From Nanobdellati archaeon (lineage in GTDB: Archaea > EX4484-52 > GLR71), in the NCBI GenBank assembly GCA_019429125.1, contig JAHYJO010000001.1:32001-96000 (forward strand): 64,000 nucleotides of DNA. The letters run 5' to 3'. Positions 1 through 22,985 of the stretch are shown here, in pieces. How positions within the stretch are numbered: the stretch's first letter is position 1; the number at the start of each line of letters is the position of its first letter. A program made the position numbers and the translations under genes. The notes beneath the pieces are model-generated. The model had not been told where the DNA came from. It ran no database searches and saw only the letters and a program-made list of their open reading frames with translations.

Positions 1-2
1 TG

Positions 3-413
3 GTTTCTGGACTTGTAAAAAGAGCTAAGATGCTTCTTGAGACATCATCAAAAATTGAAGATCTTGATGATGGGAATATTTGGATTACTGCTTTGAAAGT
101 GTTAGTTGTTATGGGGCTATTTGCGCTGGTCAGTGTATGGTGGATACGTAAAAAGGATAAGTTCAAGCTAAAAAAATCATTGAATAAATTTAAGAAAAAA
201 ACATTGAGTAAAGAGGAGATTGAGATACGTCAAAAAGAGTTAATTTATGATAAAACTAAAATTCAAAGAGTATTGAAGCTTTTAGAGCGTGAGTCCAAAG
301 ATGGAACAATAAATAAAGATGCGTATGATGAATTAAAGAATATTAACGATAAAAAGTTATCTGCAATTGATAAAAAAATAAAAAGTTTGGGCGCCAATAA
401 AGGAAGCAAATGA
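3..413 (+). CDS. 5'-truncated membrane-anchored protein (C-terminal TM helix plus charged SHOCT-like tail)
   Basis: Frame is open from position 3 to TGA at 411-413; TM segment IWITALKVLVVMGLFALVSVWWI followed by a Lys-rich helical tail. Confidence 0.7.
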   Translation, partial: VSGLVKRAKMLLETSSKIEDLDDGNIWITALKVLVVMGLFALVSVWWIRKKDKFKLKKSLNKFKKKTLSKEEIEIRQKELIYDKTKIQRVLKLLERESKDGTINKDAYDELKNINDKKLSAIDKKIKSLGANKGSK

Positions 414-425
414 TTAGTGTTTTTT

Positions 426-770
426 TCATTGTTTACACAGATTAACAATTGCTAACTTTTTTCTCATCTCAGATTTATATTCTCTTTTTTCAAAAAACAT
501 AATTAAGAATATAAGACACATAAAGATAGTTAATATCAGTATGTTTATAGTATGATTAATAAGGTCATTTATTGTGTGGTATATAGCACCTTCGTCTGTG
601 GAACATAATGTTTTTCCGTTCTGCATGGCAAAGGAATACTCGATTGATGAAGTGCCTTCGAAATCGTTGCAGATGTCTGCGTGTATGGATTCATGAAAAT
701 ATGTTTGTGTAGAATTGATGAATATGAATATGATGAGTATTACAAGTATCTCTTTTGAAAATTGTTTCAT
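426..770 (-). CDS. Small membrane protein with HExxH motif
   Basis: 114 aa, hydrophobic at both ends, YFHESIH motif. Confidence 0.6.
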   Translation of the reverse strand: MKQFSKEILVILIIFIFINSTQTYFHESIHADICNDFEGTSSIEYSFAMQNGKTLCSTDEGAIYHTINDLINHTINILILTIFMCLIFLIMFFEKREYKSEMRKKLAIVNLCKQ

Positions 771-870
771 AAATATCTTTTAATAGTATGGTGCTTAAAT
801 AGGTGTATGTTTTTTGTATGATTGATAAATCCTATAATTATTTTTGTGGATTATTATGTTGTGGAGTCAG

Positions 871-1878
871 ATGAGGTTAAGATATTTTAAAAAACAATTC
901 TGCTTGGGCAGTCTTATTATATATGTTAGTTTTATGGTATGTTTATTCATCTTTACTAATCCAATTTATGCAAAAGAACTTCAGGTTGGTGTGTCTCCTT
1001 TAATGCTTGATCTTGGAACTGTGAAAAAAGGAGAAAGTGTTGTGGGGTCATTTTTTATTGTGACGTCATCACAAGATGATATTATTGTGAAATTAAAATC
1101 ATCACGTTCTAATTTTGATTTCTTTAAAAAACCTATAAATATAGATATTGTTAATTATGTGTCTGAAGAAGATAGTTCCGGATGGGTTTATTTTCCTGAG
1201 AATCCATATGTTCTCAAATCTACAGAGTATGTGTTAAATACCAAAGGCGGAACAATATCTGATTGGAAAAATGTTAATTTTGTGTTGAATGTCCCTGAGG
1301 ATGCTGAGTCATGCTATCATGCATTTAAGATTGAACCTACACCTTATACAACAAAAGAAGAGGCTAGTTCTGTAAGTATTGTTGCAATGGTAACGATTAC
1401 TGTGAAATTTCAGGTTGCTGGTGGATGTGAGGTCAATGGAAATATATTGGATGTCATGCAGGATACTTCAAGTAAATATATTGATTTAGGTGTATATTTT
1501 AAGAATACAGGTAATGCAACGTTTTCAGCGTATAGTCCTGACGTGATGATATTTTATGAGAATGGCACATTGCTTGATAAGCAACGTTCGGGATATGCTT
1601 ATTTTACTCCTGGAGATATTGGTGTGTTGAATGCACGGTTTGATCCAAAAAAGATTGTTCCTGGTAATTATATTGTAAATACTACAGTATTATATGGTGC
1701 TAATACAACATCAAAACAAGTGCCACTTACTATTGAAAGATCAGTGGTTGCAAAAATATCGACAGTAGTTTCAAAGACACCTGATGGTACTGATAATACT
1801 TTTTGGATATTGCTACTTGCAATAATTCTGATAATTGTTGGCGCCTATAAATTCTATAAGGTCGAAGATAAAAGATAA
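871..1878 (+). CDS. Secreted two-domain beta-sandwich protein with C-terminal TM anchor (DUF916/DUF3324 WxL-interacting-protein-like)
   Basis: Signal peptide ending IYA; VGVSP...GES, WV.F, VNFVLNVPEDA, FKNTGN motifs; C-terminal TM plus basic tail; GGAG before ATG 871. Confidence 0.6.
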   Translation: MRLRYFKKQFCLGSLIIYVSFMVCLFIFTNPIYAKELQVGVSPLMLDLGTVKKGESVVGSFFIVTSSQDDIIVKLKSSRSNFDFFKKPINIDIVNYVSEEDSSGWVYFPENPYVLKSTEYVLNTKGGTISDWKNVNFVLNVPEDAESCYHAFKIEPTPYTTKEEASSVSIVAMVTITVKFQVAGGCEVNGNILDVMQDTSSKYIDLGVYFKNTGNATFSAYSPDVMIFYENGTLLDKQRSGYAYFTPGDIGVLNARFDPKKIVPGNYIVNTTVLYGANTTSKQVPLTIERSVVAKISTVVSKTPDGTDNTFWILLLAIILIIVGAYKFYKVEDKR

Positions 1879-1880
1879 AT

Positions 1881-1973
1881 GCTAATAGATGTTAATAGAT
1901 GATAATCTAGAATAATTGATGATAATTGATGATAATTGATGATAATTGATGATAATTGATGATAATTGATGAT
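1881..1973. repeat. 10-bp tandem repeat (GATAATTGAT)n
   Basis: Five exact copies at 1921-1970, with degenerate copies at 1881-1920. Confidence 0.95.
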
Positions 1974-2013
1974 ATATCTATATTTTTTTGGTTTTTGTTA
2001 ATTATTATTTTAT

Positions 2014-2708
2014 TCAAACTTTGACATTTCTGACTTTTTTGTTTTTTATCGTTTTTTAAACACCTGAATTGGACAGATATTAGTACAGTACTAGATTGCG
2101 TTTTTTATGTTTTTTAACTTATTTTTCAATACCTCATTTGACAATTTGTATTCATAAATCAAAATATGTTATTAGGGGTTTGATATATATTGAAATTCCG
2201 ATTTAATCTATAATAAAAATTAAGAAAATTCATAAAAAGTAGCCAAATGAATTTGACAGTTGGGCTAAAATTTAAAAAAATGATTAAACAAATAGATATT
2301 TATTCGTACTTGTTTAGCAAAAAAATAATCGGCATACTACGATCATCATGATGTGATTTACATACATTATACTTTTTATAAAATCAATAGCTACAGCTTG
2401 AAAATGTGTAGTTAATTTTTGTTAAAAAATATTTACTCCTTTTTTGTAAAATCGATAGCTTGCAAGTAACGTAGAAAATTATAACTTAAAAATATTTCAA
2501 CAAATAATGACCGTATCAAAAAAATCGTAAGCAAGTAAGACAAAATTTAGCTAAACAAGTACATTTATTCTTATTTTTTACCATAAATTAACTTATTTTT
2601 AGTCAAAAAGAAAGAAAATTATATGGAAAATGGAAGTAAAGTACTAAAAATAGCTAACTGTCAAATAGATATTCTGAATGAAATAGTTAACAAACTGTCA
2701 AACTTAGG
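2014..2708. mobile_element. MITE family A, copy 1 (430 bp once the nested element is removed)
   Basis: Colinear with 48467-48896; imperfect TIRs (tcaaactttgaca...tgtcaaacttagg); 695 - 257 - 8 = 430 bp, the same length as copy 2; no ORF. Confidence 0.85.
2306..2562. mobile_element. MITE family B, copy 1 (257 bp), nested in MITE A
   Basis: Perfect 13-bp TIR gtacttgtttagc/gctaaacaagtac; exact 8-bp TSD atttattc (2298-2305 and 2563-2570); near-identical to 38596-38852. Confidence 0.95.
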
Positions 2709-2802
2709 TTTCATCTCTAGTTCAGTGGGTAATGTGGGCTCTTGAGAGCAATTATTATGAACCTATATAAGTACTTAAAACCAATAATATTTTGTGTTCT
2801 CT

Positions 2803-3351
2803 ATGAAAAAACAGTCAAAAAACTCAAAAAAAATAAATTTAATTAAATCTTTACCAATAATCATGCTTGCTGTATTGATTGTTTCTTTGTTTGCTATCGT
2901 TTTTCATACACCCTCCTTTGAATCTGATAATCCTGTTAAGAATCATACTGTGCTGTATGAGGAAGGTATGTTTTACACTTATGAGATTAATAAGTATCCC
3001 ACTTCTGTGGAGATAAGTGATATTGATGAACGTAACCTGTCTGTTGGTTTTTCACTTGAGACATCAAGTCTTAATTTCGGGGTAGTTCCTACAGGAGGGA
3101 ATATGGGTAAGAGGTTTTTGACTTTAAAGAATACGCAGGACAGTAAAGCAAAGATGATGTTTGTGGTATATGGTGGTATATCTCCTCTGATAAAGTTTAA
3201 TGATAACGAATTTTATCTTTTGCCCGAAGTTCTTAAAGACATTGAGATTGTGCTTGAGACAAAACAGGACACAATGGTTGGTAATTATTCTGGTGAAATT
3301 AATATTGTTGTCAAAAGGTCAAAATATGAATTTTTAGAATGGTTGTTATGA
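2803..3351 (+). CDS. N-terminally anchored beta-rich protein of the surface cluster
   Basis: N-terminal TM; LNFGVVPTGG and GNYSGEINIVV motifs. Confidence 0.75.
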   Translation: MKKQSKNSKKINLIKSLPIIMLAVLIVSLFAIVFHTPSFESDNPVKNHTVLYEEGMFYTYEINKYPTSVEISDIDERNLSVGFSLETSSLNFGVVPTGGNMGKRFLTLKNTQDSKAKMMFVVYGGISPLIKFNDNEFYLLPEVLKDIEIVLETKQDTMVGNYSGEINIVVKRSKYEFLEWLL

Positions 3352-3359
3352 GGGTGTAG

Positions 3360-4178
3360 TTGATGCTTAAGGATAAATATTTTTCATTTTATTATGTTTC
3401 TGTTATTTTGTTATCTATATTTTTTTTATGTACTTCTTTGGTGTACAGTGCGGAAATAAATGTTAATGTGGCTGAACATTTAGATACTGTATTAAAAGAG
3501 ATTGATTGCTGCAAGTTAAATGATAAAGTAATGACTGCCAGTTTTGATGTGTTTAATTCCGGAAGTATTGCATATGCTGCGCGCATAAGGCTTGATGTGT
3601 TTGATGAGGATAATGATAAGAAGATTACATCTGTTTGGAGTAGCAGTTCCGAATTTAATCCTGGACAGAGAGATAGCATCAGTCTTTATTGGTATGAGCC
3701 GTCAGACACTACACGTATTGCAAAAGTAAGACTTTATAGGGGATATGATATTTTAAATCTTGAAGAGATTACTTGGCGGTTTAATAAGTCAGTTGAATCT
3801 CAATTATCAAAAGGGTTCGGAGAGTTTGCAGATTCTGATAATATTTTTGGAAATATTAATTTTGAGGATGTTCGGGTTTATGAGCATAATATAAGATTTA
3901 AGATAACAGCAGATGAAGACATTGAAAAAGTAATAGTCTATCCAGTACAATACAAAGAGGGATGGATTTTTGAACAGACTGTTGTAGAGGATGTCATTGC
4001 GGATAAACCAAGAATTGTGGATGTCAATTATGATACTGGTTTTTTCTATGAAAATGAAATAACGTTGGTTGCGGTAAGTTCTGATGGCGAATATTACGGT
4101 GAACAGAAGGTGTTACTTAAGAAAGAGTCAGGTATCCGAAAATGGTTGAATCTTTTTGTAGATATGTTGAAGATATAA
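3360..4178 (+). CDS. Secreted beta-rich protein
   Basis: Signal peptide ending VYSA; FDVFNSGS Ig-like strand; operon spacing. Confidence 0.8.
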   Translation: MMLKDKYFSFYYVSVILLSIFFLCTSLVYSAEINVNVAEHLDTVLKEIDCCKLNDKVMTASFDVFNSGSIAYAARIRLDVFDEDNDKKITSVWSSSSEFNPGQRDSISLYWYEPSDTTRIAKVRLYRGYDILNLEEITWRFNKSVESQLSKGFGEFADSDNIFGNINFEDVRVYEHNIRFKITADEDIEKVIVYPVQYKEGWIFEQTVVEDVIADKPRIVDVNYDTGFFYENEITLVAVSSDGEYYGEQKVLLKKESGIRKWLNLFVDMLKI

Positions 4179-4202
4179 TATGGGATGCTTAAGGAGATTT
4201 GT

Positions 4203-7016
4203 ATGAAATTTGGATATGTATGTTTTATTGTTTTTATCTCCTTGTTATCTTTAGGAAATTGTGTGTATGCAGTGCCAGTATTGAATGATTTATCTGTTCA
4301 GAATCAAGAAATTTGGCTTGGTGAAACAGAGATAATATTTGTAAATTGTACAGATGATAATCAGATTGTATCTGAGGTGTATGCAGATATAAGTACAACG
4401 AGCGCATTGTATCCCGGTAATTCTTTCTTGTTGGATGCAGACGGTACTTATTATTTGCCTGTGTCTACATCTTTACAGTCTAATTTCAATAAGGTTGGTA
4501 TCTTTGATGTGGTGGTCTATTGTCGGAATGAGAATGGGGATTCTGTAAATTCGTCCATATCATTTACTGTCTCAAATTTGAGTCTTGAGATTAGTAGTAT
4601 GTCATCTTCTGTATATATCGGAGACATAGCGGAGATTAATCTTTTTGTCAAGAAAGATGGAAGTTCAATAAGTTCTGATGTCATTGATTTTGAGGTGTTT
4701 TATGCAGGCAAAACAATATCTTTATTGTCACCACCTTATTATGATTTTGAAAAAGGGTGGGTATTAAGATACTCTACTGCTACTTTTGTGGCTGGGACTT
4801 ATACATTTTCTATTGTTGCAAATTATTCTGGTAGTGAGATTGAGGCAACTAAAGGAGTAAGTATATATAATCCTGTTGATTTTTCAATAGTTAATGTTGG
4901 TTCTTCATGGATTTCAATAGAAGAGACTGTCACTGTCTCGGTGAAAGCAACTGAGAGAGGTAATCCTATAAAAATAGATGAAAATAAGATGTCTGTACGT
5001 ATCGATTCAACAACTGTAAGTAGCTTTGAGGTATTGGCGGCGTCAACAAGTAATGTTTATGATATAATATTTACAGCACCATCATTGTCTTCTGGAAAAC
5101 ATACACTTAAAGTATATTTTAAGTATGAGAATGATTCATTATATGATTCTGAGAATGTAATATATGTAATATCTGCTTCAGGGGTCATGTTTATTGAAAC
5201 AGATAATACTCATGTGGTTGACTTAAAGTTTAAGTCAGATAAAATAACCAAAGATGTGCGGACGGATAATAAAGGGAAATATTTGTTATCTTTTCCTCCT
5301 GATGTTTATAATATAGAAATTAAAGATAGTTTTTTTACGCTTGGTATATCTAATGTGGAAATAGATGAGTTTGATGATGCGATAAAATATCAGTATCTCC
5401 CAACATCATATGTGGATGGGATTTCGGGGAGTGGTATATTTTATTATGGTATTGCATCTGAACTGGATTATGATTATCTCAGTCTGAAATTAAAGTATGA
5501 TTCAAGTAAGATTCATGATATTTCTTTGCTTGAAGTATATGTATGTACTGATTGGGATACTGGAAATAAGAAATGTCTCTCTGAATGGAATGTTATTGAT
5601 TCTGAGATTGACAGTTTGAGGAAAACTGCAACAATTAGTCAGGCAGTGCTTAATGCAGCATATATAGTTGGAAATATTGATTCGTTGAATGTTGCAGGAA
5701 CCATTGAAAAGGCGATATATAATATTAATGATGAGATAAAGATAACAGGACTTAGTCAGGACACTGCAAAAAATGTGGTTTCTGATGTAACATTTGATGC
5801 ATATATTTCAGGAACATCTATTGAAGCTTCAGGTGTGTCTGATTCAAAAGGATTGTTCTCATTCAGTATTTCAAATCCAAAAGATGAAGGCAATTATACT
5901 CTTATCATAAATGCATCTAAAGATCCGTTTTTATCGGCACAAAAAAAAATTTATTTTGAGGTCTTGAAGAGAAAAGATGTGGCTATTGTCAGTCCTGATA
6001 CAATCCGTTTGTATCCGGGGGATTCGTCGGAGGTTGAATTTTTAATAATAAATACGGGAGAATCTGCTCTGTCAAATATGTCTGTATCATTGAATGGTTT
6101 ACCATCGAGTTATTATCAGATGATATATCCGGATAATATCTTGAATCTGAAAGAATCTGAAGAGAGCTCAATTATTGTTTATTTTGATATACCTATTAAT
6201 GCGTCAAAAGAGATGATTAGTGTGTCATTTGAACTATCAGGGTCTGGGATATCTAAGAAACAAAATGTTGTTATGAATATATTTGCGCCAAAAAATGATA
6301 GTTTAGGGGTAATATCTGCATCTTTATCTGAATCATCAATGTCTGATAATAATTACGGTTTTTTTTCTTTGGATAAATTATCATTATTTAGTATGCCTAC
6401 AGGGAATTCTATTGCACTTTTGGCATCAGGTGAAACCATATATGTGTTCTTGTTTGCGATGTTAAGTTTTTCAACTGCATTCTTATTTAGGAAACGAAGG
6501 TTGACAAATGTATACAGCAACAGATTAAGGGAAAGTAACAGATTGCTCATATTTGAGATAAGAAAGCATATGTTTAAGGTGACGGGTTCTGATACTATTG
6601 ATAATTTTAATGTGTGCGGTTGGGGTAGAAGATATGAACAACATAAAAAGCATACAAAAACAAATATGAATATGAATATGAATATGAATATGAATATGAA
6701 TACGGATAATGATATAAATACAAATACAAATAAATCAACAAGTGATATTTCAACAAGATTAGAGAGGGCGATTGTAGCGTCGTGTCCTGTGGATAAGAGA
6801 GTTATTGAACCGAACATTGAATCTGATACAAGATTAGACAAGAAGAAAGACTTAAAATTAGATTTGATCTCTGACATATATGACAATCTGAATAAAGATT
6901 CAAATGAGAAAAAAGGATTAGATAATTCTGGAGATATAGAGAAATCAGAGGACAATGATGATGTCGATTCAAGCATGAGTGGTGAAGAATCAGAAACGAA
7001 GGTGTTGGAAAATTGA
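4203..7016 (+). CDS. Large multi-Ig-domain surface protein with TM anchor and low-complexity cytoplasmic tail
   Basis: AAGGAG RBS; signal peptide; repeated GxYTxxxxA strands; CARDB/COG1470-like IINTGES motif; TM near aa 750. Confidence 0.8.
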   Translation: MKFGYVCFIVFISLLSLGNCVYAVPVLNDLSVQNQEIWLGETEIIFVNCTDDNQIVSEVYADISTTSALYPGNSFLLDADGTYYLPVSTSLQSNFNKVGIFDVVVYCRNENGDSVNSSISFTVSNLSLEISSMSSSVYIGDIAEINLFVKKDGSSISSDVIDFEVFYAGKTISLLSPPYYDFEKGWVLRYSTATFVAGTYTFSIVANYSGSEIEATKGVSIYNPVDFSIVNVGSSWISIEETVTVSVKATERGNPIKIDENKMSVRIDSTTVSSFEVLAASTSNVYDIIFTAPSLSSGKHTLKVYFKYENDSLYDSENVIYVISASGVMFIETDNTHVVDLKFKSDKITKDVRTDNKGKYLLSFPPDVYNIEIKDSFFTLGISNVEIDEFDDAIKYQYLPTSYVDGISGSGIFYYGIASELDYDYLSLKLKYDSSKIHDISLLEVYVCTDWDTGNKKCLSEWNVIDSEIDSLRKTATISQAVLNAAYIVGNIDSLNVAGTIEKAIYNINDEIKITGLSQDTAKNVVSDVTFDAYISGTSIEASGVSDSKGLFSFSISNPKDEGNYTLIINASKDPFLSAQKKIYFEVLKRKDVAIVSPDTIRLYPGDSSEVEFLIINTGESALSNMSVSLNGLPSSYYQMIYPDNILNLKESEESSIIVYFDIPINASKEMISVSFELSGSGISKKQNVVMNIFAPKNDSLGVISASLSESSMSDNNYGFFSLDKLSLFSMPTGNSIALLASGETIYVFLFAMLSFSTAFLFRKRRLTNVYSNRLRESNRLLIFEIRKHMFKVTGSDTIDNFNVCGWGRRYEQHKKHTKTNMNMNMNMNMNMNTDNDINTNTNKSTSDISTRLERAIVASCPVDKRVIEPNIESDTRLDKKKDLKLDLISDIYDNLNKDSNEKKGLDNSGDIEKSEDNDDVDSSMSGEESETKVLEN
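6663..6698 (+). repeat. (AATATG)6 in-frame microsatellite encoding (NM)6
   Basis: Six exact hexamer copies. Confidence 0.95.
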
Positions 7017-9498
7017 AAGGAAAAGATATCTTATTTTTTTGATGTTGGTATTTATTTTTCTGTTGCCGTTAATTTATTCACTTCAGCAGAATTTTATAAT
7101 TAATGGTAATTTTACATCTGGAAGTTCTTTAGGATGGACTTATTCTGAAGAGGATTTGTCGGGTGTTGGGTCCTCAAATTTTAATGTGTCTGGTGGTAAT
7201 GATGATTCTGGAGTATGGTATCTTGAAGTCAATGATAGTCTGTCTGATATAGGGTATAATGTTACCAGCAACTTGACTAATGATGGAGGATTGTGGTTAA
7301 ATTCTGGTACTGTTGTTTCTGCTACGGTGCCATTCTCTTATAAACAGACCTGGACAATATCTGCACCTACAGTAAATCTTATTAAGGTGTTTTTGGTAAA
7401 ACCTGACAGTTCAGAAGTCATTCTTTTTTCACGTTCGTCAATAGTTGATGATGCTTCATATATGACAGAATCAATAGATGTAGGTATTAATAATTTCTCA
7501 GACAGTGGGGTGTATAAATTAAAACTGTATAATTATGTTGAGACGTCAGTTTCTGATGTGCTTATTATTCGGAACTTTTGGGACGATATTGATCTTGTTG
7601 TGGTATATCAGGATGAGGTGGTGCCAGAGATTACGGTGCAGTCGCCACTGAACAAATCTTATGATAATGATTCAGTATGGGCTAACTTAACATTGAATGA
7701 GGATGGTTCATGGTGTGGATATTCGCTTGACGGTGCAGTAAATATCACTATGTCAAATACATCAGGCAACTGGAACAGTCTTGTTGGTGGATTGTCTGAG
7801 GGTGCACATAAAATTACGTTTTCGTGTAATGATACGGTAGGCAATATGAATACATCTGAAGTCATTGTATATTTTACTGTTGATACGACATATCCTCAAT
7901 ATGCATATAATAGTACAAATTCTACGGAAATTGGAAGTTATGTCCTTTTCAGTTTATATTGGACTGACAATTCAGTTTCAGGGTACATATTCTCGTTTGA
8001 TAATGGTACTGGTACATTTGTGAATGACAGTTATGTCAATATGGCTGGTGTTTCTGTTTGGTCAAATGTTAGTAAGCAGATTAATTCAACTGTTGGTGCA
8101 CTCATACAGTGGCGCGTGTATGCAAATGATACGGGGGGAAATATGAATGCATCTGAAATATATAGTTTTTATACAGTTGATTCTGAGGCTCCGGAGATTA
8201 CGGTGCATTCGCCACAGAATAAATCGTATGGTGCTGATTCAGTATGGGCTAACTTAACATTGAATAAGGCTGGTTCATGGTGCGGATATTCTCTTGATGG
8301 GAGGCTAAATGTCACTATGTCAAATACATCAGGCAACTGGAACAGTCTTGTTGAAGGATTGTCTGAATTGACACATAACATTACTTTCTCATGCAATGAT
8401 ACCTTAGGCAATATGAATACATCTGAGGTCATTGTATATTTTACTGTAGATACTATTAAACCTACATTGTATGTCTACTCACCTGATAATATCTCATATA
8501 CTACAAAATTAATTAATCTGACTGTGGGTGCGGATGAGACTATAGATACTTGGCAATACAGTCTTAATGGTATGACAAATGTGATGTTTTCACCAAATAC
8601 AACAATAATTATGCTTGCTGGAGTCAATAACATAACAGTCTATGCTAATGATACTTCCGGAAATATGAATAGTACTGTGGTTTACTTTTTATTAAATACG
8701 ACGCTTGAGGTTGAACTTGTGGAACCAAGCACTATCTTTGTTACAAATATCATAAAAGGTACACAATTCATCATAAATGCAACTGTCATATGTAGGGAAG
8801 GTGATTGTGGGGATGTGTCTGCTACGGTGCGATATAATGAGACATCAGTCAATCCGGATACAGCAGTCAATATAACTGTGGGTGCTGAACCATTCTTTAT
8901 TGATGAAGCATCACCAGTATCTACAAAATCTTGTTCTACAAATCCATTGTCTGAAAATGAATATTGCAATGTGTCTTGGGTGATTAATGCGACTGATTCA
9001 GGTCTTGATTTATGGAAATTTGATGTCAATTTCAGTTCTGATACGGGTTGGACGACAATCAATAATACATTATTTTCTGAGATTTCAGTTGTACCGTGTG
9101 TTGTTGATTTTACTGTTACTTGGACATCTATAGATTTTGATAAGGCTCTAGTGCCTAATACATATCAAAATCCTGCAGTAGGCAATGATGGTAATATTTA
9201 TAACATAACAATCAATGATGGCAGTTGTAATACGGATGTGTATATTAAGGGTACGGATATGGTGGGTGAGGATACCAATAATATTCTGGGTGCAGGGAAC
9301 CTTACATGGAGCAACAGTTCTAATTTGTATAGCACTTCATATAATATGACCGAAATATATATGCCATTGAAGTTTGATGTGCAGTCATCTACAAATATTA
9401 CTACATGGTACTGGATTGATATACCACCAATATTTGCTGAGAGCTATAATGGGACTGTATATATACAAGGTGTTAAAAATGGGGATCCACAACCGTAG
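6979..9498 (+). CDS. Secreted adhesin-like glycoprotein: N-terminal jelly-roll/CBM-like domain, Ig-like repeats, C-terminal WxL-like domain
   Basis: Signal peptide; IINGNFT...GW; repeated DTxxP / CxYSLDG / NDTxGN; many NxS/T sequons; ends WIDIP...YNGTVYIQG with no TM; start codon uncertain. Confidence 0.75.
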   Translation: MVKNQKRRCWKIERKRYLIFLMLVFIFLLPLIYSLQQNFIINGNFTSGSSLGWTYSEEDLSGVGSSNFNVSGGNDDSGVWYLEVNDSLSDIGYNVTSNLTNDGGLWLNSGTVVSATVPFSYKQTWTISAPTVNLIKVFLVKPDSSEVILFSRSSIVDDASYMTESIDVGINNFSDSGVYKLKLYNYVETSVSDVLIIRNFWDDIDLVVVYQDEVVPEITVQSPLNKSYDNDSVWANLTLNEDGSWCGYSLDGAVNITMSNTSGNWNSLVGGLSEGAHKITFSCNDTVGNMNTSEVIVYFTVDTTYPQYAYNSTNSTEIGSYVLFSLYWTDNSVSGYIFSFDNGTGTFVNDSYVNMAGVSVWSNVSKQINSTVGALIQWRVYANDTGGNMNASEIYSFYTVDSEAPEITVHSPQNKSYGADSVWANLTLNKAGSWCGYSLDGRLNVTMSNTSGNWNSLVEGLSELTHNITFSCNDTLGNMNTSEVIVYFTVDTIKPTLYVYSPDNISYTTKLINLTVGADETIDTWQYSLNGMTNVMFSPNTTIIMLAGVNNITVYANDTSGNMNSTVVYFLLNTTLEVELVEPSTIFVTNIIKGTQFIINATVICREGDCGDVSATVRYNETSVNPDTAVNITVGAEPFFIDEASPVSTKSCSTNPLSENEYCNVSWVINATDSGLDLWKFDVNFSSDTGWTTINNTLFSEISVVPCVVDFTVTWTSIDFDKALVPNTYQNPAVGNDGNIYNITINDGSCNTDVYIKGTDMVGEDTNNILGAGNLTWSNSSNLYSTSYNMTEIYMPLKFDVQSSTNITTWYWIDIPPIFAESYNGTVYIQGVKNGDPQP
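7624..8453 (+). repeat. Intragenic direct duplication of one Ig-like domain (about 7624-7886 vs 8191-8453)
   Basis: Long identical stretches such as gattcagtatgggctaacttaacattgaat and cactatgtcaaatacatcaggcaactggaacagtcttgttg; offset 567 bp, in frame. Confidence 0.9.
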
Positions 9499-10156
9499 TC
9501 TTATATTATTTGCAATGTTGTTTGCGTTATTATTAGTGGAACCTGTGTGTGCATTCAATCTTGGTACTTTACAGAAAACTACAAGTTATAATGTCACTTC
9601 TGGGGAGACTGTTCAATTTGATATTTTATTCTGGAACACGGAAGCTATAGGTTATAATTTACAATTGGAAATTGTTCACGTACCTAAAGATTGGGTTGTA
9701 ATCTCTGACCCTTCTATGTTTTATCTTGATAATAATTATTCGGGTAAGATTGAACATATGTATATTTCCCGACTTAAGAAAACTGTTAATGCAGCTTTAG
9801 TAAATGTTTATGTTTATGTTCCTAAATCAGAAAAGTTGGGTAAATATACTGTGGTGTTGAAAGCTGTGGCAGGTGAGGGGGATTCTATATCTGGTTTTTC
9901 GTTGAGGCAGGAACGCACTTTCTTTTTTGATGTCTATGTGACAGAAGATTTATATCTGGACGCACACAATGATGAAATAGAATCAAAAAGTGTTTCTATA
10001 GATATAAAGCCTATTATTAACCATAAAAAAAGCGATGTATTGTATAGGGGTTCAGAACGACCTGTTAGTATATTTCAATATATGAAGGGTGTTATTTTTT
10101 TGTTGATAATTATAATGATTTTATGGATTGCACGGAGGATATATGAATATGATTGA
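9479..10156 (+). CDS. Single Ig-like (COG1470-like) domain protein with signal peptide and C-terminal TM
   Basis: ATG at 9479 gives a signal peptide ending VCA; VPKDW and GKYTVVLKA motifs; C-terminal TM. Confidence 0.75.
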   Translation: MGIHNRSLILFAMLFALLLVEPVCAFNLGTLQKTTSYNVTSGETVQFDILFWNTEAIGYNLQLEIVHVPKDWVVISDPSMFYLDNNYSGKIEHMYISRLKKTVNAALVNVYVYVPKSEKLGKYTVVLKAVAGEGDSISGFSLRQERTFFFDVYVTEDLYLDAHNDEIESKSVSIDIKPIINHKKSDVLYRGSERPVSIFQYMKGVIFLLIIIMILWIARRIYEYD

Positions 10157-11492
10157 CAAGAAATATTTTATCTTTCTGTTTGGAATTATTGGTCTTCTTA
10201 TTATAATACAGGTTCAGTCATCAATTCTTGAATCCTCCATAACTGGAAATCTATTATTGAGTGAGGTAAATGTTTCTATAAATGCCTATGATAATGGTAA
10301 GGTTAGCATCTTGAATTATTCCGATAGGATTGAACAGTATTCAAAGTTAGTTATAGGTGCTGAATTTTTAAATACTGGGAGCACTTCATATTCAAAAAGT
10401 TTGTTATTGCAGATTGGTACTTATGATGAGAATATGACTATTAGTGCAAACCGTACGGGAACTACAATAGTTATGAAACCAGGGGATAGAAGTTTTGATA
10501 AATTGACATACACACCGTTATATTATGGATTTTATTGGATGCATTTGATAGTTTCTTATGGGAATAAGACTGCGGATGCGTGGGGGACATTTTATGTTGA
10601 TCCATATTATATCATAGTTATTCCGCCTAATGTAACTGAGGGTGAACCAGGGGGTCCTCTTGATGTAGAAGATACAACAGGTGGCGATGGTGATGGTTTA
10701 AGTATGGGTGGTGGTGGTGATGATGTGGTTCTGTCTGCGTTATTGGATTCAGGTATATATGATACGGGTCGGATATTGGTCACACTTTCACATCCAGATA
10801 AGATTTCTGTTAGACCTGGGCAATCTTCTGTAGTCTATGTTATTGTCAATAATACGGGGACTATGACGCTTAGGAGGATGATGCTCTTACCGCGTATTAT
10901 TGGAAATATTAAGATTGAAGCACAACCTATGAATATCCAGACATTGAAAGGTGGGCAATCTGCAATCTTTATGATTACTCTTGATGTGCCTTATGATATT
11001 TATAATCGTACATATCCATTGGATTTCAAGGTTTTATTTGATAAGGATAGTAGGGCGGGACATATTGATGTTGAAGTGGGACCTGGAAACCTTGAGGATG
11101 ATCTTTTAAATATCATACTTAATTATAGGTATATTATAACAAGGCTTACAAGTGAAAGGGATAAACTTTATTTTGAGGGAAAAAATACAACACTTCTTGA
11201 TGAATACATATCTGATGCAGATTATGATTTGGTAATTGCAAAAGAGAATTATGATCTGGGTGATTATGGTCCTGTACGTGAATATCTTAATGAAACACTG
11301 AATCATCTTGAGGATGCTGTTCTTGAACTTGCCAGTCTAAGAAAATCTGATACATTTGTCCTGTTTGCTACCAATGTCTGGTTCTTGATAGTGCTGATGA
11401 TTATAATATCTATTGTGATAGCTGAGGTCTATATGCATAAACGAAAGCATAAGAAATATATTAAATATGAAGGCGAAGATGCGATTGTTTAG
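10143..11492 (+). CDS. Membrane-anchored Ig-like protein with Gly/Asp linker and helical stalk
   Basis: N-terminal hydrophobic segment; FLNTGS and VNNTGT strands; helical region; C-terminal TM plus basic tail. Confidence 0.75.
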   Translation: MNMIDKKYFIFLFGIIGLLIIIQVQSSILESSITGNLLLSEVNVSINAYDNGKVSILNYSDRIEQYSKLVIGAEFLNTGSTSYSKSLLLQIGTYDENMTISANRTGTTIVMKPGDRSFDKLTYTPLYYGFYWMHLIVSYGNKTADAWGTFYVDPYYIIVIPPNVTEGEPGGPLDVEDTTGGDGDGLSMGGGGDDVVLSALLDSGIYDTGRILVTLSHPDKISVRPGQSSVVYVIVNNTGTMTLRRMMLLPRIIGNIKIEAQPMNIQTLKGGQSAIFMITLDVPYDIYNRTYPLDFKVLFDKDSRAGHIDVEVGPGNLEDDLLNIILNYRYIITRLTSERDKLYFEGKNTTLLDEYISDADYDLVIAKENYDLGDYGPVREYLNETLNHLEDAVLELASLRKSDTFVLFATNVWFLIVLMIIISIVIAEVYMHKRKHKKYIKYEGEDAIV

Positions 11493-11913
11493 GGTTTTTA
11501 TTTTAAGTCGTATCTTTTCCGTCTTTTTGTATTTATTTACCGATTGAGTCGTTTAATCAGTGTGTTTGATTTTGGTGGTTTTTTTATTTTTCTATTGGTT
11601 GGTTTATTCTAACTCGTTATTTGGTCTGTTTTATTTGTTTGGTTATTGGGTTCTTGTTGTTTATATTTTGGTATTAATTTAATACTATTTATTTTGTTAC
11701 AGAAATAGATTCATGAGTGGAGTGGTAAATTAAGCATTGTTAAATGTTTTTGGTTTGGCAGGGGGGGGTAATATGTTTGTTTGAGGAAAGAGAACAAATT
11801 AATTAAATTGGATTATAGATTTTGTGTTTTGAATAAAAATGAGATAAAAAGAAAAAGAATTTTAAAAAATAAAAATGAACCTGACGGGGATTCAGGTTCA
11901 TTTATTACTGTAA

Positions 11914-12801
11914 TTAATATGATGCAACGATTGTTAGTGTTCCTGAAGTTGTGTCTCCGTAAGGGATTCCATTTGGTACTGATGCATATATACTAATTGC
12001 GTCTTCTGATCCGGGTATAAGATTATCAGTTATTAAACTTCCACTATTATCACAGTTTGGAAATTGACTTGACATATCATATTTATAGAGGTATATCTTA
12101 TCACAAGTATTTGCTGTTGCAATGCAGTATCCTACAAGTGGTCCAGTGGAACATGTAAAGGTTCCCCAGGTAGTGCCTGGTGTAACAGTAGTACAAGTAG
12201 ATGCTCCAACTGTTATATCACGATTTAAAGTTGTGTCATTTTCAGGTATAGAACTTATTTGAAATATCGTACCGGTATTATTACATACTCCATCTGTTCC
12301 ATTTTCAACTTTCCATAAATATTCATTACCTGTTGAGTTTCGGTACCACCCGTGAGCAAAAGCATTTGTGTTCTCATTAATATTTAATTCTTCTCCAGTT
12401 AGTATTGATGAAAGGTTCCATTCAAGACGGCCTGCGTGTGAATGTGCGGAGTCTGTTGAATTCTTTACAAATATAAGACCTGCAGCAGAATAAGCAGTTA
12501 CATCTGCTGTTGGTAGTGGGTTTGTTGATTCTACTGTGATTGTATCTGTAGTCATGTATATACCACTAACATTTACTGATCCTGTATTTTTGATAATTAT
12601 ATATTCTGAAGCGCCATTTGAACCTGGTTGTAGCAGTGTCCAGTTTATGACATTTGGACTTACAACTATTGTCCCAACAGCTGATATATTAATATTTACA
12701 GTTACAGTATCATTTGTATCTACTGCAAATGTGATAGGACCATTTATTAGGGTCAAAAGAATTATTGCCAATGCAAGGGGCATTATGTATTTTTTATTCA
12801 T
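11914..12801 (-). CDS. Secreted Thr/Asn-rich protein, candidate major filament subunit (WxL/TasA-like)
   Basis: Signal peptide ending TFA; alternating N-terminal strand TVTVNINIS; INWTLLQPG; IKNTGSVNV; C-terminal VP.G...SGTLTIVA; no TM. Confidence 0.6.
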   Translation of the reverse strand: MNKKYIMPLALAIILLTLINGPITFAVDTNDTVTVNINISAVGTIVVSPNVINWTLLQPGSNGASEYIIIKNTGSVNVSGIYMTTDTITVESTNPLPTADVTAYSAAGLIFVKNSTDSAHSHAGRLEWNLSSILTGEELNINENTNAFAHGWYRNSTGNEYLWKVENGTDGVCNNTGTIFQISSIPENDTTLNRDITVGASTCTTVTPGTTWGTFTCSTGPLVGYCIATANTCDKIYLYKYDMSSQFPNCDNSGSLITDNLIPGSEDAISIYASVPNGIPYGDTTSGTLTIVASY

Positions 12802-12873
12802 ATTAATCACTTGTCTAAATGTTTTTATAGTTTTATTTTGTGATCATGTCGTATATATGTCTTTCGGTTATAT

Positions 12874-12894
12874 GGCACTGTTCAAAAAGTGAGT
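12874..12894 (+). mobile_element. Isolated left end of MITE family C
   Basis: ggcactgttcaaaaagtgagt is identical to 62229-62249. Confidence 0.65.
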
Positions 12895-12957
12895 GAGTTT
12901 TGAGGATATATCTGATAATGTCTTTTTGCGAGTATCATATATTCTGGTGTTATTATT

Positions 12958-14157
12958 TCACATTTTAAAAAAGAATATGATTGTCGGAATTATCAGGCAA
13001 CCCATTAACATTGATCTTCTTGCGCCTATTGTCTGCGCATATATGCCTAAGGAGGTTGACGTTATAAGAAGTATGAGTCCTGTTATACTTGTGAAAATTA
13101 TTGTCATAAGAGTAAGAAGAATGATTATTGAGGTACCTAAGATTCTGTAGTCTATCTTTTCTATGATGGTTGTTGCTATCTTTCCGATTTTCATTGTTAG
13201 TATTGCTGACAGTCCGGCTGACAGGAATGCTACACCAATAAATATTGATAATGTGTTTTTTGTTAGGTCTCCTATTATTGAGTCAACCGCTATTGCCACA
13301 CCTGATCTTGCGTTACCTATTAGGTATATCGCTATAAATGACAGGATTATGTCAATTGTTCCGATTGTGCCGACGGCTATTATGAAGTTTTTTGCGCCTT
13401 TTATCTTTCCTATGTGTTGGACAAGCATTGCTGACTGGGAGGAGCCAAGACCGGGGATTATGCCTGCTACAAGGCCACCTGCAAACCCTGCAAAGGAGCT
13501 TTTGATTGTTCCTTTTGTTTTTATCTTTATTTTTGTGTTTTGTTTTGGTATTTTTGATTTGTTTTCAAGACTCATCAGTATGTTGCTTATGCCGAAAAGG
13601 CCAGCAAAGAGTGGGAATAAGGTGTAGTTTGAGTTTATCATGTGTAAATCAAGGGTTATGGTGCCTAATATCCCTGATAATATGAAAATTAAAAGCGATC
13701 TTTTCCAGTTGCTACTTCTTGAGATTATGAATGTTATTGCAAGGACTAAAATGTAGGGGATTGATGGTTTTATTGTCTTGTATGCAGGAGTTACAAGGTC
13801 TGCAATCGTTATGAGGAATATCATAAGTATTATCATACCTAAAAGACCACCAATGACTGATAATGCCAGTGCTTCATATCCTTTTCCTTTAAACAGCATC
13901 AGGTGAGTGGGTAGTGTTGTCAAGGCTGTTGCCGGGTCGGGTGCACCGAAAAAGATTGAAGGGATGAAATCCATGAATGAGTGGGTTGTGCTCATGGTTA
14001 TTATGAAACAGCTTAAAAGAAGCGGGTCTGTGTCGTAGGTTCTGTGGACTGCGAGCGCAAGGATTGCAATCGTGTTTATGTGAAGGCCAGGTGTGAGTCC
14101 TGTTACTGTTCCAGTTAGGATTCCAGCGATTGAGAATAAGAGTATTAGTTCAAGCAT
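12958..14157 (-). CDS. TctA-family (tripartite tricarboxylate transporter) membrane protein, archaeal COG1784 type
   Basis: GLTPGLHIN, FIPSIFFGAP and the second repeat GIIPGLG; highly hydrophobic. Confidence 0.85.
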   Translation of the reverse strand: MLELILLFSIAGILTGTVTGLTPGLHINTIAILALAVHRTYDTDPLLLSCFIITMSTTHSFMDFIPSIFFGAPDPATALTTLPTHLMLFKGKGYEALALSVIGGLLGMIILMIFLITIADLVTPAYKTIKPSIPYILVLAITFIISRSSNWKRSLLIFILSGILGTITLDLHMINSNYTLFPLFAGLFGISNILMSLENKSKIPKQNTKIKIKTKGTIKSSFAGFAGGLVAGIIPGLGSSQSAMLVQHIGKIKGAKNFIIAVGTIGTIDIILSFIAIYLIGNARSGVAIAVDSIIGDLTKNTLSIFIGVAFLSAGLSAILTMKIGKIATTIIEKIDYRILGTSIIILLTLMTIIFTSITGLILLITSTSLGIYAQTIGARRSMLMGCLIIPTIIFFFKM

Positions 14158-14380
14158 TTAATTAATTTGGTTGGATATGTGGGTTATAAATTGGTAAACA
14201 CTTAAGAGGGTGAATTTGAGGAGATGGATAGGTCTGTTTTTACAGTCTTTGCAAATTGTATCTTTACAAGTTTTTGTGTATAGATAATCTTATTTATTGA
14301 GGAGCGGTCTTATCTTGTTTGTTATGTCTTCTGATTTTTCTATTAATTGTCATCTTGTTTGTTATAATTTTTATAGAAAT

Positions 14381-16162
14381 TTAAAGTTCCTCATCATGTG
14401 TTCGAGTATATCTGTTCCAAACTGTCCTGAATATTTTTGAGTCTTTTATCAGGTCGGCAAATGATCCGTTTGCAATAACTTTTCCGTCATGGAAATAGTA
14501 TATCATGTCAAACATGGGCAGGAGATGAAGCCTGTGGATGGATGATATGATTGTCCTGTCACTGAATTCATTGAATATATTTTTGTAGATGTCAATTTCG
14601 TTTTTTGAGTCCACACTGCTAGTTGGCTCGTCAAGTAATATGATTGATTTGTCTTTACAGGCCATAAGACCTCGTGCTAGTGCAAGGCGCTGTTTCTCGC
14701 CACCACTTAAATTGACGCCTTTTTCAACAATTGAAGATTCTAGTTTATTTGGTAGGCGCTCGAGGACATCTGTGAAACGGGCCAGGTCTGTGTATTTTTT
14801 TATTTCTTCTTTGCTGTGTTTTACACCCATCGTTATGTTCTCTTTTATGGTTGTTGAAAATATTTCTGGGTCTTGTGGGATGAGCGCAATTGATGAGCTT
14901 ATGTCTCTGAAATTGTTTTTAAGGTGTTTTCCGTCAACTGATAAGTCTACATGTTGAGGTCTATATAATTGCCGTATAATTTTTAGTAATGTGGTCTTTC
15001 CGCTACCGCTCTCACCTATGAGCGCTATCCTTTTTCCGTTCTCAATCGATAAAGATATGTTGTCTAGGTGCTGGTCGCAACATTCTTTATTGCTGTATGA
15101 GAATGTCAGGTTTTCTATTTTTAGTTCTTGCCAGTCTTTTTTTATCAGTTTAATTTCATGAACCTTTATCTTTTCAAATTCGTCTGATATCTCCTCAGCA
15201 TTCATGACTGCAGTTCTTTCACGGACTATATCACCGTAGCGGTAGGCGAACCTGAAAAATAGTTGGTTTATCTTGTTCACATAGCCGTAAAGTGCGAATA
15301 TGCTACCTACAAGCACTGTCGTGCCGGACCTTAAGCTGAAATATATGTAAGTTGCAAGGACTAGAAATTTCATTAGCGATGTGCATGTGGATACGAGGAA
15401 CCATTTGGTCTCGTTTAATTTATGGTTTCGTACGAAAAGTTTGAAAGGTTCCATGATGCTTTTAAATACTGATTTTGAAATTAGGTTTTCAGTACGCAAT
15501 ATTATAACTGTTGTTATGTTGCTTATGGTGTCATATATCTTTTCGGATATTTTGTTTTCAGAATGGTTCAATTTTATATATTGTTTTATGAGTGTCTTGT
15601 CAAATTTGAGAATTATGTTTAAGGTTATTATTACTATGAAAAGTACGATGTAGCTTGAATGAAGATTGAAATATATAAGCGCTATGTAGGAACCTATGAA
15701 TCTTATAAGTGTCTCTATAACTTCATAGGTGTTTGAGGAATATTTGTATAGTGCGTCTGTGGACTTATTGATTTTATCTATGGTGTCTCCTGAATGATGG
15801 TCTGTGTGCCATTTTGCATGTAAGGACATTGTGCCGTTAAGAAGGTATTTTTTGTAGTTTGCGCGAACCAAAAATGCGTTTCTGTATTCTAGGATACGGG
15901 CGGGACCGTGGAATATCCAGAATATGATGGAAAGTACTACGAAGAGGAACAAGTAAAATATGATAGTGTTAAAGTTGGTTGCGCTCAATCCTTCGAGCTG
16001 TATAGTATTTAGGATTTTTGCGATTAGTAAAGGTTCAATCAGGTTCAGTATGTTTGCGATTATGAACATTATAAAATAGAGGATTACCTGTTTTCTGTTG
16101 CCTTTTGAGTATTTCCACATGGTGCGGGTGAGGTAGATTACTGGGTTGTCTTTTATGGCCAT
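14381..16162 (-). CDS. ABC exporter, fused permease and ATP-binding domain
   Basis: N-terminal TMD; Walker A GESGSGKT; LSGGEKQR; Walker B IILLDEP; H-loop IHRL. Confidence 0.95.
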   Translation of the reverse strand: MAIKDNPVIYLTRTMWKYSKGNRKQVILYFIMFIIANILNLIEPLLIAKILNTIQLEGLSATNFNTIIFYLFLFVVLSIIFWIFHGPARILEYRNAFLVRANYKKYLLNGTMSLHAKWHTDHHSGDTIDKINKSTDALYKYSSNTYEVIETLIRFIGSYIALIYFNLHSSYIVLFIVIITLNIILKFDKTLIKQYIKLNHSENKISEKIYDTISNITTVIILRTENLISKSVFKSIMEPFKLFVRNHKLNETKWFLVSTCTSLMKFLVLATYIYFSLRSGTTVLVGSIFALYGYVNKINQLFFRFAYRYGDIVRERTAVMNAEEISDEFEKIKVHEIKLIKKDWQELKIENLTFSYSNKECCDQHLDNISLSIENGKRIALIGESGSGKTTLLKIIRQLYRPQHVDLSVDGKHLKNNFRDISSSIALIPQDPEIFSTTIKENITMGVKHSKEEIKKYTDLARFTDVLERLPNKLESSIVEKGVNLSGGEKQRLALARGLMACKDKSIILLDEPTSSVDSKNEIDIYKNIFNEFSDRTIISSIHRLHLLPMFDMIYYFHDGKVIANGSFADLIKDSKIFRTVWNRYTRTHDEEL

Positions 16163-21924: not shown

Positions 21925-21937
21925 CGGTATTTCCTCA

Positions 21938-22932: not shown

Positions 22933-22985
22933 GTGTATCTTAAGAATTAATTGGGGGCGGGTGGTATATATAGGGGGTGTGGTTT

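Follow-up and report, generated by a model that had tools for sequence, protein, structure and literature searches.

Does an ultra-small archaeon assemble a surface fibre by donor-strand exchange with the help of a membrane-anchored chaperone? This question is raised by eight genes for exported proteins at positions 871–12810 of a 64,000-nucleotide stretch of contig JAHYJO010000001.1 (positions 32,001–96,000 of the forward strand), from the assembly GCA_019429125.1 of a Nanobdellati archaeon. The whole stretch is called the window hereafter, and all coordinates refer to it; proteins are named by the first position of their genes. An original prediction, made from the sequence alone, had proposed that these genes encode a WxL/csc-like filament or adhesion system, in which 11914–12801 is the major subunit, 6979–9498 the tip adhesin and 871–1878 the anchor or chaperone. 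Our analysis suggested that these genes of a DPANN archaeon probably specify a surface fibre built by donor-strand exchange with the aid of a chaperone, with both polymerisation and chaperoning predicted from structural models. The evidence for this reading includes a predicted strand insertion between copies of the subunit, the chaperone-like fold of a membrane-anchored neighbour and the co-conservation of the genes across genomes. The two proteins at its centre are as follows.

11914..12810, minus strand (ATG at 12801): candidate major subunit (pilin) of 295 amino acids, with a signal peptide ending in ..TFA
871..1878, plus strand: candidate chaperone, a membrane-anchored, two-domain PapD/WxLIP-like protein, proposed from an AlphaFold2 model and structural searches

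Predicted strand exchange between subunits

The candidate subunit has 10 N-glycosylation sequons and a Cys-rich insertion in a predicted immunoglobulin (Ig)-like or jelly-roll core. It has 71 homologous clusters with 30%–72% identity, and all those that are named belong to DPANN archaea. The AlphaFold2 model, based on a 70-sequence alignment, reached a predicted local distance difference test (pLDDT) score of 91.3. In this model, the N-terminal strands (residues 45–128) and the C-terminal strands (residues 266–294) form a sandwich, and a further strand-rich segment holding six cysteines lies between the two sets of strands. Residues 20–44 have no secondary structure in the model (pLDDT 58–79).

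The mature subunit (residues 27–295) was then predicted as a homotrimer. Its interface score (ipSAE) was 0.71 (runs 0.57, 0.71 and 0.81), compared with 0.00 for the best of three controls, although this prediction does not separate a short oligomer from a polymer. Contact agreement among the runs was at least 66%, and the pLDDT of the partner was at least 86. In the calibration of these complex scores, 20 of 30 solved pairs reached the mark, as did one of 23 proteins whose solved structures are single chains. The predicted interface joined residues 27–42 of one copy to residues 43–59, 96–110 and 271–295 of the next. The incoming strand paired with the last strand of the acceptor (residues 286–295), and the pairs 291:31, 290:32, 289:33 and 289:35 placed the two strands antiparallel to each other. 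The original prediction had expected such an N-terminal strand insertion in a homo-oligomer of this protein and had named self-contained Ig folds without strand complementation as the contrary outcome; the trimer model showed the insertion, at residues 27–42.

The predicted donor strand is strongly conserved. Its consensus (residues 27–42) is D-T-V-T-V-N/D-V-N-I-S-S-V, in which polar T/N/D/S residues alternate with hydrophobic positions. Positions 35, 37 and 39 are V, I or L in all 70 aligned homologues, whereas position 34 is T in 60 and position 33 is hydrophobic in 64 of them. A hidden Markov model (HMM) of residues 27–44, applied to 2181 open reading frames (ORFs) of the genome, gave 22.8 bits for the subunit itself and 7.0 bits for the next match, an unrelated ORF. 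Two further proteins of the locus, 3360 (AEINVNVAE) and 10128 (SEVNVSINA), were considered as carriers of a similar N-terminal donor strand and rejected. The HMM missed both, which ranked outside its top 25, and their resemblance to the donor strand appears to be no more than a generic alternating pattern.

A second sequence element, L/I-(N/D)-(F/W/L)...P/G, had been put forward as a strand shared by several of the proteins. All four instances are present, the element is conserved, and LDLGTVKKG, INWTLLQPG and IDFDKALVPN coincide with alignment columns that are conserved or invariant among orthologues (G49/G54 in alignments A2 and A4, W54/P59/G60 in A1 and W166/F171/P177 in A3). However, this element is the usual opening-strand signature of PapD-like/ASH Ig domains and so is not itself the donor strand; the trimer model places it in the acceptor, at residues 49–59. 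The motif by itself carries little information. Proteins 2794 and 9374 each have one Ig domain that opens with an L-x-F/L-G form of it, plus a membrane anchor. The similarity noted earlier among three C-terminal strands is real and conserved in the orthologue alignments, and the models suggest that these strands would be the ones to pair with a donor strand.

Structural comparisons of the subunit gave only middling scores. The top rows of the Foldseek search were TLP-1a, the TasA fibre and CanA, with E-values of 0.017–0.04. In the VIA-wide search, which is independent of Foldseek, ASH/PapD/MSP domains aligned over about 90 residues. The longest alignments (135–137 residues, Z 5.8–6.2) were to the TasA fibre and to TLP-1a/b, and the list also included cannula subunits, WxLIP (Z 5.6), AbpA (Z 5.2) and Fim pilins. 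Individual values were Z 6.2 for TasA (8aur_A; 135 residues aligned, root-mean-square deviation (rmsd) 4.0), 6.0 for 9ikk_A and 5.2 for 7ueg_A. In a second look at the top 990 Foldseek chains, strand-exchange subunits predominated (TasA 6.2, CanA 6.0, FimA 6.0, TLP 6.0/5.8), together with FimF/G/I, Caf1, PapE, the Natrinema Tafi pilin and CfaB. No WxL-domain chain was among the listed structural matches, which does not exclude that fold. The modelled fold class fits strand-exchange subunits, but such scores are little proof by themselves.

At the sequence level, the subunit matched Peptidase_M73 (TasA, PF12389) over residues 4–94 with 19.4 bits and E 0.001, below the cut-off of 22.5. The same family was found below its threshold in eight of 70 subunit homologues (best E 0.0016), which made it the most recurrent one; a genome-wide search for PF12389 gave nothing above the cut-off. 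Paralogy within the locus was also considered and rejected: the profile–profile probability between the subunit and protein 871 was 19%, in the signal peptide region only, and the hhalign probability between the subunit and the C-terminal domain of protein 6979 was 3%.

A membrane-anchored chaperone-like protein

Protein 871 consists of a signal peptide, two beta domains (residues about 34–185 and 189–290) and a C-terminal membrane helix (residues 309–334). Its AlphaFold2 model, from 30 sequences, had a pLDDT of 85.9. The first-ranked Foldseek match was 9i1y_A, the WxLIP of Enterococcus faecium (E 1.1e-10, template-modelling (TM) scores 0.39/0.47), and the third was 9i25_C, a WxLIP bound to a long WxL protein; RbmA, the tandem domains of CEP192, FimC and EcpB came next, with similar E-values and lower TM scores. 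The VIA-wide search likewise ranked 9i1y_A first, with Z 12.8, 228 of 267 residues aligned and an rmsd of 7.7. The chaperones of chaperone-usher systems followed: FimC (10.1), SafB (10.0), FaeE (10.0), PapD (9.5), YadV, CfaA, EcpB and CupB2 all had Z 9.2–10.1. The PapD-like domains of HYDIN and CEP192 had Z of about 10. Additionally, among the ESM Atlas features, 16 of 30 matches of protein 871 were WxLIP clusters carrying PF06030 and PF11797, and the highest-ranked unnamed clusters came from bacteria of the candidate phyla radiation (CPR) and from Aenigmatarchaeota.

In sequence profiles, this link stayed below the thresholds. When 40 members of the 871 family were scanned, 35 of them distant, PF11797 appeared below its threshold in six of the 35 and PF06030 in one, each in the matching domain. 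Among 16 remoter relatives, PF06030 was found in eight, at best with 24.2 bits against a cut-off of 27.3, and generic Ig families scored alike in these relatives. A word-indexed search with the broad chaperone profile A5 listed no protein with WxLIP Pfam domains. The 871 family itself is large, with 2265 representative clusters at E ≤ 1e-3 (203 when the limit is set to E ≤ 1e-30), and includes Nanohaloarchaea. A CPR homologue, P0252 of Liptonbacteria, was aligned by hhalign with 98% probability (E 1.6e-13, 223 columns) and has the same layout of signal peptide, two domains and membrane helix. The fold of the model combined with the C-terminal helix makes protein 871 a candidate chaperone. The proposal of a membrane-anchored protein with the DUF916/DUF3324 (WxLIP) fold at this position therefore gained in silico support.

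Co-conservation of the genes

The 295-amino-acid subunit was used to scan one genome per species, which yielded 17 loci, and the window proteins were compared with these by tblastn. At least one of the seven other genes was present at 13 of the 17 loci. All seven partners occurred at five loci (L003, L007, L008, L013 and L015), with 24%–88% identity. L016 has six of the partners, L014 five, L017 four, L012 three and L004 two, and these incomplete loci were mostly truncated by contig ends. A single partner gene was found in each of L005, L011 and L019, and none by tblastn in L006, L009, L010 and L018.

The position of the subunit gene varied among these loci. It follows the last gene in the source genome, L003, L004, L008 and L007, in convergent orientation in the first four and co-oriented in L007. 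In L012, L013 and L016, it lies next to the 871 homologue and points away from it (divergent), whereas L015 (three tandem copies) and L017 (one copy) have it co-oriented ahead of that homologue. The gene set thus survives rearrangement of the subunit gene, which suggests that the genes are functionally linked. Among 42 genomes of the phylum, 33 had the subunit, with up to five matches per genome, and 31 had the 871 family: 27 had both, six the subunit only, four the 871 family only and five neither. In 10 of the 27 genomes with both, the two genes lay within 12 kb on one contig. The source genome has one subunit gene and one chaperone-like gene only, according to a paralogue search. The co-conservation of the whole set across genomes shows that the grouping exceeds chance. 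This bore out the original prediction on this point, for which a lack of co-conservation in other genomes would have been the adverse finding.

Gene organisation and the remaining proteins

The source genome comprises 1.16 Mb, is 93% complete and has a G + C content of ~32%. The window contains A-type ATP synthase and eRF1-family genes, which mark the organism as an archaeon, and the public contigs nearest to it carry the labels DPANN, Aenigmatarchaeota or Nanohaloarchaea. Seven ORFs of the locus (871–11492) lie on the plus strand, at 844/871–1878, 2794–3351, 3360–4178, 4185–7016, 6979–9498, 9374/9479–10156 and 10128/10143–11492, and the subunit ORF (11914–12810) is convergent on the minus strand. 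From 2794 on, the genes are separated by 8, 6, −38, −20 and −14 bases (negative values are overlaps), and a gap of 915 bases after 871–1878 contains a repeat element. All eight proteins have an N-terminal hydrophobic segment, and proteins 871, 4185, 9374 and 10128 have a second, C-proximal membrane segment. Sequons are common not only in the subunit but also in the 839-amino-acid protein 6979, where there are 48.

A Pfam/NCBIfam scan of the eight proteins gave a single match above the cut-off, Big_13 in protein 6979. Comparison of the eight proteins with each other, pairwise and by profile, revealed no similarity except a weak domain match (E 1e-4) between protein 10128 and residues 596–684 of protein 4185. 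The absence of a pilus ATPase, prepilin peptidase and usher from the window, stated in the original prediction, held for the 47 ORFs scanned against Pfam. The accompanying absence of SipW weighs little because the genome encodes one archaeal signal peptidase I elsewhere; several T2SSE-type ATPases are also encoded outside the window. No LP.TG motif was found in the 12 proteins of positions 1–16162 or in the orthologues of four locus proteins.

The remaining proteins of the locus are as follows.

2794..3351, plus strand: accessory protein of 185 amino acids with an N-terminal membrane anchor and one PapD-like/ASH-type Ig domain
3360..4178, plus strand: candidate minor subunit or adaptor, a secreted two-domain beta protein of 272 amino acids
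4185..7016, plus strand: core conserved multi-Ig surface protein of 943 amino acids, with a membrane segment at about residues 742–769
6979..9498, plus strand: candidate tip adhesin or acceptor, a glycoprotein of 839 amino acids with N-x-S/T sequons and Big_13 repeats
9374..10156, plus strand (probable start 9479): membrane-anchored accessory protein of ~225 amino acids with a signal peptide and a C-terminal helix
10128..11492, plus strand: candidate membrane anchor or terminator of 454 amino acids with a signal peptide and a C-terminal membrane helix

Protein 6979 has a variable N-terminal part with Ig repeats (Big_13, E 1.5e-9) and a strongly conserved, Cys/Trp-rich C-terminal domain (about residues 576–839). 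Alignment A3 of this domain has 50 invariant columns, including Cys and Trp, and only the C-terminal 260–450 residues of the protein are conserved in L008, L013, L014, L015 and L016. The ESM Atlas gave only weak WxL and SCPU leads for the domain (0.75–0.77; WxL 0.76–0.77). Protein 6979 is a candidate tip adhesin by its architecture, a variable N-terminal part followed by 260–300 conserved C-terminal residues.

Protein 4185 has only sub-threshold Pfam matches (CarboxypepD_reg, Big_7 and CARDB). Its orthologues at 10 loci (26%–75% identity) are conserved to about residue 798, and the protein is a candidate stalk or anchor. Its cytoplasmic tail (about residues 770–943, window 6353–6976) is of low complexity, with an NM repeat and acidic runs, and is not conserved. 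In protein 10128, which has orthologues at eight loci, a Gly/Asp-rich linker separates an N-terminal Ig-like domain from a CARDB/NEW3-like domain, and a helical stalk and the membrane helix follow. In L008 (11356–12996), the homologue of protein 10128 has an additional segment at its N-terminus that is similar to the N-terminal part of protein 4185 (35% identity over 158 residues), which suggests domain shuffling between the two proteins in this relative. Protein 9374 has one Ig-like domain that opens with NLGTLQK and has orthologues at seven loci.

Orthologues of proteins 2794 and 3360 were found at nine loci each. Protein 2794 has a single hydrophobic segment (residues 12–43), and two of its seven orthologues examined by profile gave sub-threshold HYDIN, PapD-like or ASH matches that cover the opening-strand motif. 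Protein 3360 has a signal-like segment (residues 6–35), an alternating hydrophobic strand at its mature N-terminus and an amphipathic C-terminal tail. Since the donor-strand HMM misses this N-terminus, its role as a minor subunit or adaptor is only inferred. The C-terminal tails of proteins 2794 and 3360 (window 3300–3351 and 4120–4178) are ..KYEFLEWLL and ..RKWLNLFVDMLKI, are amphipathic and are conserved in orthologues; they may represent a shared docking or membrane-association peptide.

The repeat element in the gap after the chaperone-like gene is a further feature.

2306..2562, no strand: repeat of 257 bp resembling a miniature inverted-repeat transposable element (MITE), with 17-nt terminal inverted repeats that are 94% complementary

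Across the genome, 31 matches to this element fall into two subfamilies (14 at 95%–100% and 17 at 75%–78% identity); a second copy lies at about window 38596–38851. The corresponding gap is about 85–116 bases in L007 and L003, compared with 915 bases here. The MITE-like repeat is no part of the surface-protein system, yet it interrupts its operon, and the insertion may affect the co-expression of gene 871 with the other genes.

Further observations concern the surroundings of the locus. A TctA-family transporter gene (12958–14157) directly adjoins the subunit gene, and the two are adjacent in L004 too. A scattered set of A-type ATP synthase genes lies at 18221–33078, 5–20 kb from the locus. 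Another island, again of surface proteins that are exported or anchored, extends over 42041–58485. It comprises five co-oriented genes without a Pfam match, three of which encode lipobox-like 'GCTG' N-termini, and four genes on the opposite strand, including those for a 1466-amino-acid CARDB protein and a 691-amino-acid NEW3/Cep192-like protein. BLASTP revealed no similarity between this island and the eight locus proteins.

Proposed assembly mechanism

In the mechanism that we propose, all eight proteins would pass through Sec and be cleaved by the generic signal peptidase I. The Ig-like core of the subunit would leave an open groove beside its last strand, and the amphipathic strand at the mature N-terminus of one subunit would enter the groove of the next in antiparallel orientation, giving a linear glycosylated polymer. 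Protein 871, held in the membrane, would cover the groove of each subunit that has just been exported and pass the subunit on at the membrane, a role suggested by its fold, architecture and gene linkage. With such a hand-over by a membrane-anchored chaperone, no ATPase, usher or outer membrane would be needed. Protein 6979 could sit at the tip, with the Ig-repeat head as the adhesin and the conserved C-terminal domain as a strand acceptor, whereas proteins 4185, 9374 and 10128 together with the small proteins 2794 and 3360 could form the base, anchor or adaptors. The likely use of the fibre is attachment to a host cell or surface.

Comparison with known systems

The closest counterpart by design is the Elr/WxL pilus (ElrA–E) of Enterococcus faecalis and other Bacillota. 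In the accessible parts of the preprint describing it (bioRxiv 10.64898/2026.10.17.759780), the pilus is a polymer of ElrD formed by donor-strand exchange, with the membrane-anchored DUF916/DUF3324 protein ElrE as chaperone; ElrA is placed at the tip by modelling, and the LPxTG protein ElrB likewise as terminator. ElrE is reported to bind unpolymerised ElrD in its groove, and ElrD is reported to aggregate or not to polymerise in its absence. The locus shares with this system a two-domain, chaperone-like protein held by a C-terminal membrane helix, namely protein 871, which has the E. faecium WxLIP as its best structural match; a large protein, here a candidate adhesin, whose head varies and whose C-terminal domain is conserved, corresponding to the layout of the tip adhesin in those parts; and the lack of an ATPase and an usher. 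The antiparallel strand arrangement predicted here is also that given there for Elr, as in chaperone-usher pili. In contrast, the host is an archaeon rather than a member of Bacillota, to which a screen of 4,698 genera at Pfam gathering thresholds confined WxL pili, as far as the same parts of the preprint report (bioRxiv 10.64898/2026.10.17.759780). No protein of the locus reached the thresholds of PF06030, PF11797 or PF13731. The Elr donor consensus, given there as [S/T]8-x-[G/A]10-x-[V/I]12-x-F14, differs from the V-T-V-N-V-N-I found here, which has no conserved Phe. Furthermore, several membrane-anchored proteins take the place of an LPxTG terminator and sortase, and the subunit core has a large Cys-rich insertion and many sequons. 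The assignment to the WxL/csc family in the original prediction was thus not supported at the sequence level, where no locus protein reached the Pfam threshold for WxL, WxLIP or TasA.

The Pam pili of CPR bacteria (PamA/B/E, PamT, PamC/D and PamR), whose pilins are called CPR-exclusive in the accessible portion of the report (PMC13278184), offer a second parallel. As described there, they belong to ultra-small episymbionts with a single membrane, have PapD-like chaperones with a C-terminal membrane helix, and use strand exchange with a proposed membrane-anchored terminator and no envelope-spanning machine; all of these features recur here or are proposed for the locus. The CPR homologue P0252 shares the architecture of protein 871. 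ATP synthase genes also lie near the Pam genes according to that portion (PMC13278184), as they do here (window 18–33 kb), which may be coincidence. However, Pam pilins are two-domain proteins whose inter-domain linker strand is the donor (PMC13278184), a comparison made by description only, whereas the modelled donor here is the mature N-terminus (residues 27–42) of a single-core subunit.

TasA and the archaeal bundling pilus AbpA are described, in the accessible part of the source, as working without a fold-completing chaperone (PMC9245690). They resemble the candidate subunit, as predicted, in being secreted beta-sandwich or jelly-roll proteins that are cut by signal peptidase I and donate a strand, according to the same partial sources, and the subunit shows weak Pfam and structural similarity to them. 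In contrast to these systems, the threshold of PF12389 was not reached and a gene with a chaperone fold is linked to the subunit; no TapA/AbpB-like partner was identified at the locus. With classical chaperone-usher pili (Fim, Pap, Caf and Csu), the locus shares the fold class of the chaperone (Z 9.2–10.1), the subunit's incomplete Ig fold and the antiparallel topology of strand exchange. The differences are the anchoring of the chaperone in the membrane and the lack of an outer membrane, usher and periplasm.

Taken together, the locus can be read as working like Elr and Pam while being a sequence member of neither. The accessible literature describes archaeal bundling pili, cannulae and Tat-dependent pili as chaperone-free, and archaeal threads are presented in a title and abstract as a strand-donation filament. 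No description of a chaperone-assisted donor-strand system in archaea was found in literature searches aimed at DPANN archaea and Aenigmarchaeota. The appendage had been suggested to be undescribed; this stands for archaea in the papers found, but papers of 2026 describe the design itself in Bacillota and in CPR bacteria.

Alternative explanations

Several results weigh against a chaperone-assisted fibre. The model of protein 871 also matches RbmA and many plain Ig tandems with E of about 1e-10, and the chaperone role is therefore not the sole reading of its fold. By sequence, protein 871 matched no Pfam family at E ≤ 1, no WxLIP Pfam match at E ≤ 10 was found in any of its nine orthologues, and the WxL family PF13731 was found in none of the eight proteins at E ≤ 1 and in none of 70 subunit homologues at E ≤ 0.1. 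Searches of PDB sequences with profiles A1, A2, A3 and A5 gave only nanobody and ETV6 artefacts and no WxLIP or TasA. For the subunit, no Foldseek match reached E ≤ 1e-3, and its structural matches were middling (Z ≤ 6.8) and tied with non-filament ASH/MSP domains. The homotrimer job, with three copies and its own alignment, departs from the setting in which the scores were calibrated; moreover, the trimer score is the model's own confidence, and solved strand-exchange fibres may have taught it the pattern. Genomic linkage is not absolute, since L006 and L010 each have a tandem pair of subunit genes and, in ~10 kb of flanking sequence, not one of the seven partners. A distance of 43 kb separates the subunit gene from the chaperone-like gene in G036, the two lie on different contigs in 16 of the 27 genomes with both, in fragmented assemblies, and in the source genome the MITE-like insertion splits the chaperone-like gene from the operon.

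Some of these observations would suit a chaperone-free matrix fibre of the TasA/AbpA type, in which the neighbouring proteins are TapA/AbpB-like anchors or adhesins. The sub-threshold PF12389 match (19.4 bits against 22.5), recurring in eight of 70 homologues, and the place of TasA (8aur) and TLP-1a/b among the top structural matches, with the longest alignments, all point to it, as do the subunit genes that are sometimes apart from the other genes (L006, L010 and G036) and the archaeal strand-donation filaments described as chaperone-free in the accessible sources. Nevertheless, we consider this explanation unlikely. The TasA Pfam threshold was not reached, and the best structural match of protein 871 is a pilus chaperone of the WxLIP/ElrE class, followed by chaperone-usher chaperones, with both domains and 228 residues aligned and a shared C-terminal helix. 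In addition, the genes for protein 871 and the subunit remain neighbours after rearrangement, in divergent orientation in L012, L013, L016, G002, G004, G005, G017, G018 and G041.

If strand insertion merely docked a few subunits and an adhesin, the locus might instead encode an anchored surface glycoprotein complex without a long fibre, such as a Csc-like display or an S-layer accessory. Five of the eight proteins are membrane-anchored, WxL/Csc clusters were viewed in older work, so far as accessible, as multi-protein surface complexes, and the trimer prediction is blind to the difference between oligomer and polymer. However, the predicted contact is head-to-tail between identical subunits, and each subunit in the trimer keeps a free groove and a free strand, so that open-ended growth would be possible. 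Subunit genes also form arrays, with 2–5 copies per genome, as pilin genes often do. Such a complex therefore appears quite unlikely to us. As for a chance gathering of unrelated exported proteins with coincidental motifs, the low information content of the shared motif and the near absence of pairwise similarity (only the weak 4185–10128 match) would allow it, but the full set recurs at five distant loci with 24%–88% identity and is kept through rearrangement. This explanation is already contradicted by synteny, and we regard it as highly improbable. The chaperone-assisted donor-strand-exchange fibre is thus the explanation that we favour.

Significance

The membrane-anchored chaperone pathways reported in 2026 were each called confined to one group, Bacillota or CPR bacteria, in the accessible parts of the respective reports. 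If a conserved DPANN locus follows the same logic, this route of assembly would reach into the Archaea, a branch that screens based on Pfam thresholds miss. We also advance, tentatively and with somewhat less confidence, the broader proposal that archaea have a chaperone-dependent pilus, that its chaperone forms one ancient family with WxLIP/ElrE-like and PamC/D-like proteins, and that it serves as a host-attachment organ widespread in DPANN archaea; the DPANN-wide spread of the chaperone-like family is suggested by its 2265 representative clusters at E ≤ 1e-3. If this is true, usher-free, ATP-independent, chaperone-guided assembly at a single membrane would be shared by both prokaryotic domains, and the DPANN locus would point to such assembly as a general answer for single-membrane cells. 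The host attachment of ultra-small episymbiotic archaea is hard to approach because most of them are uncultured, and the locus would provide candidate genes for this process.

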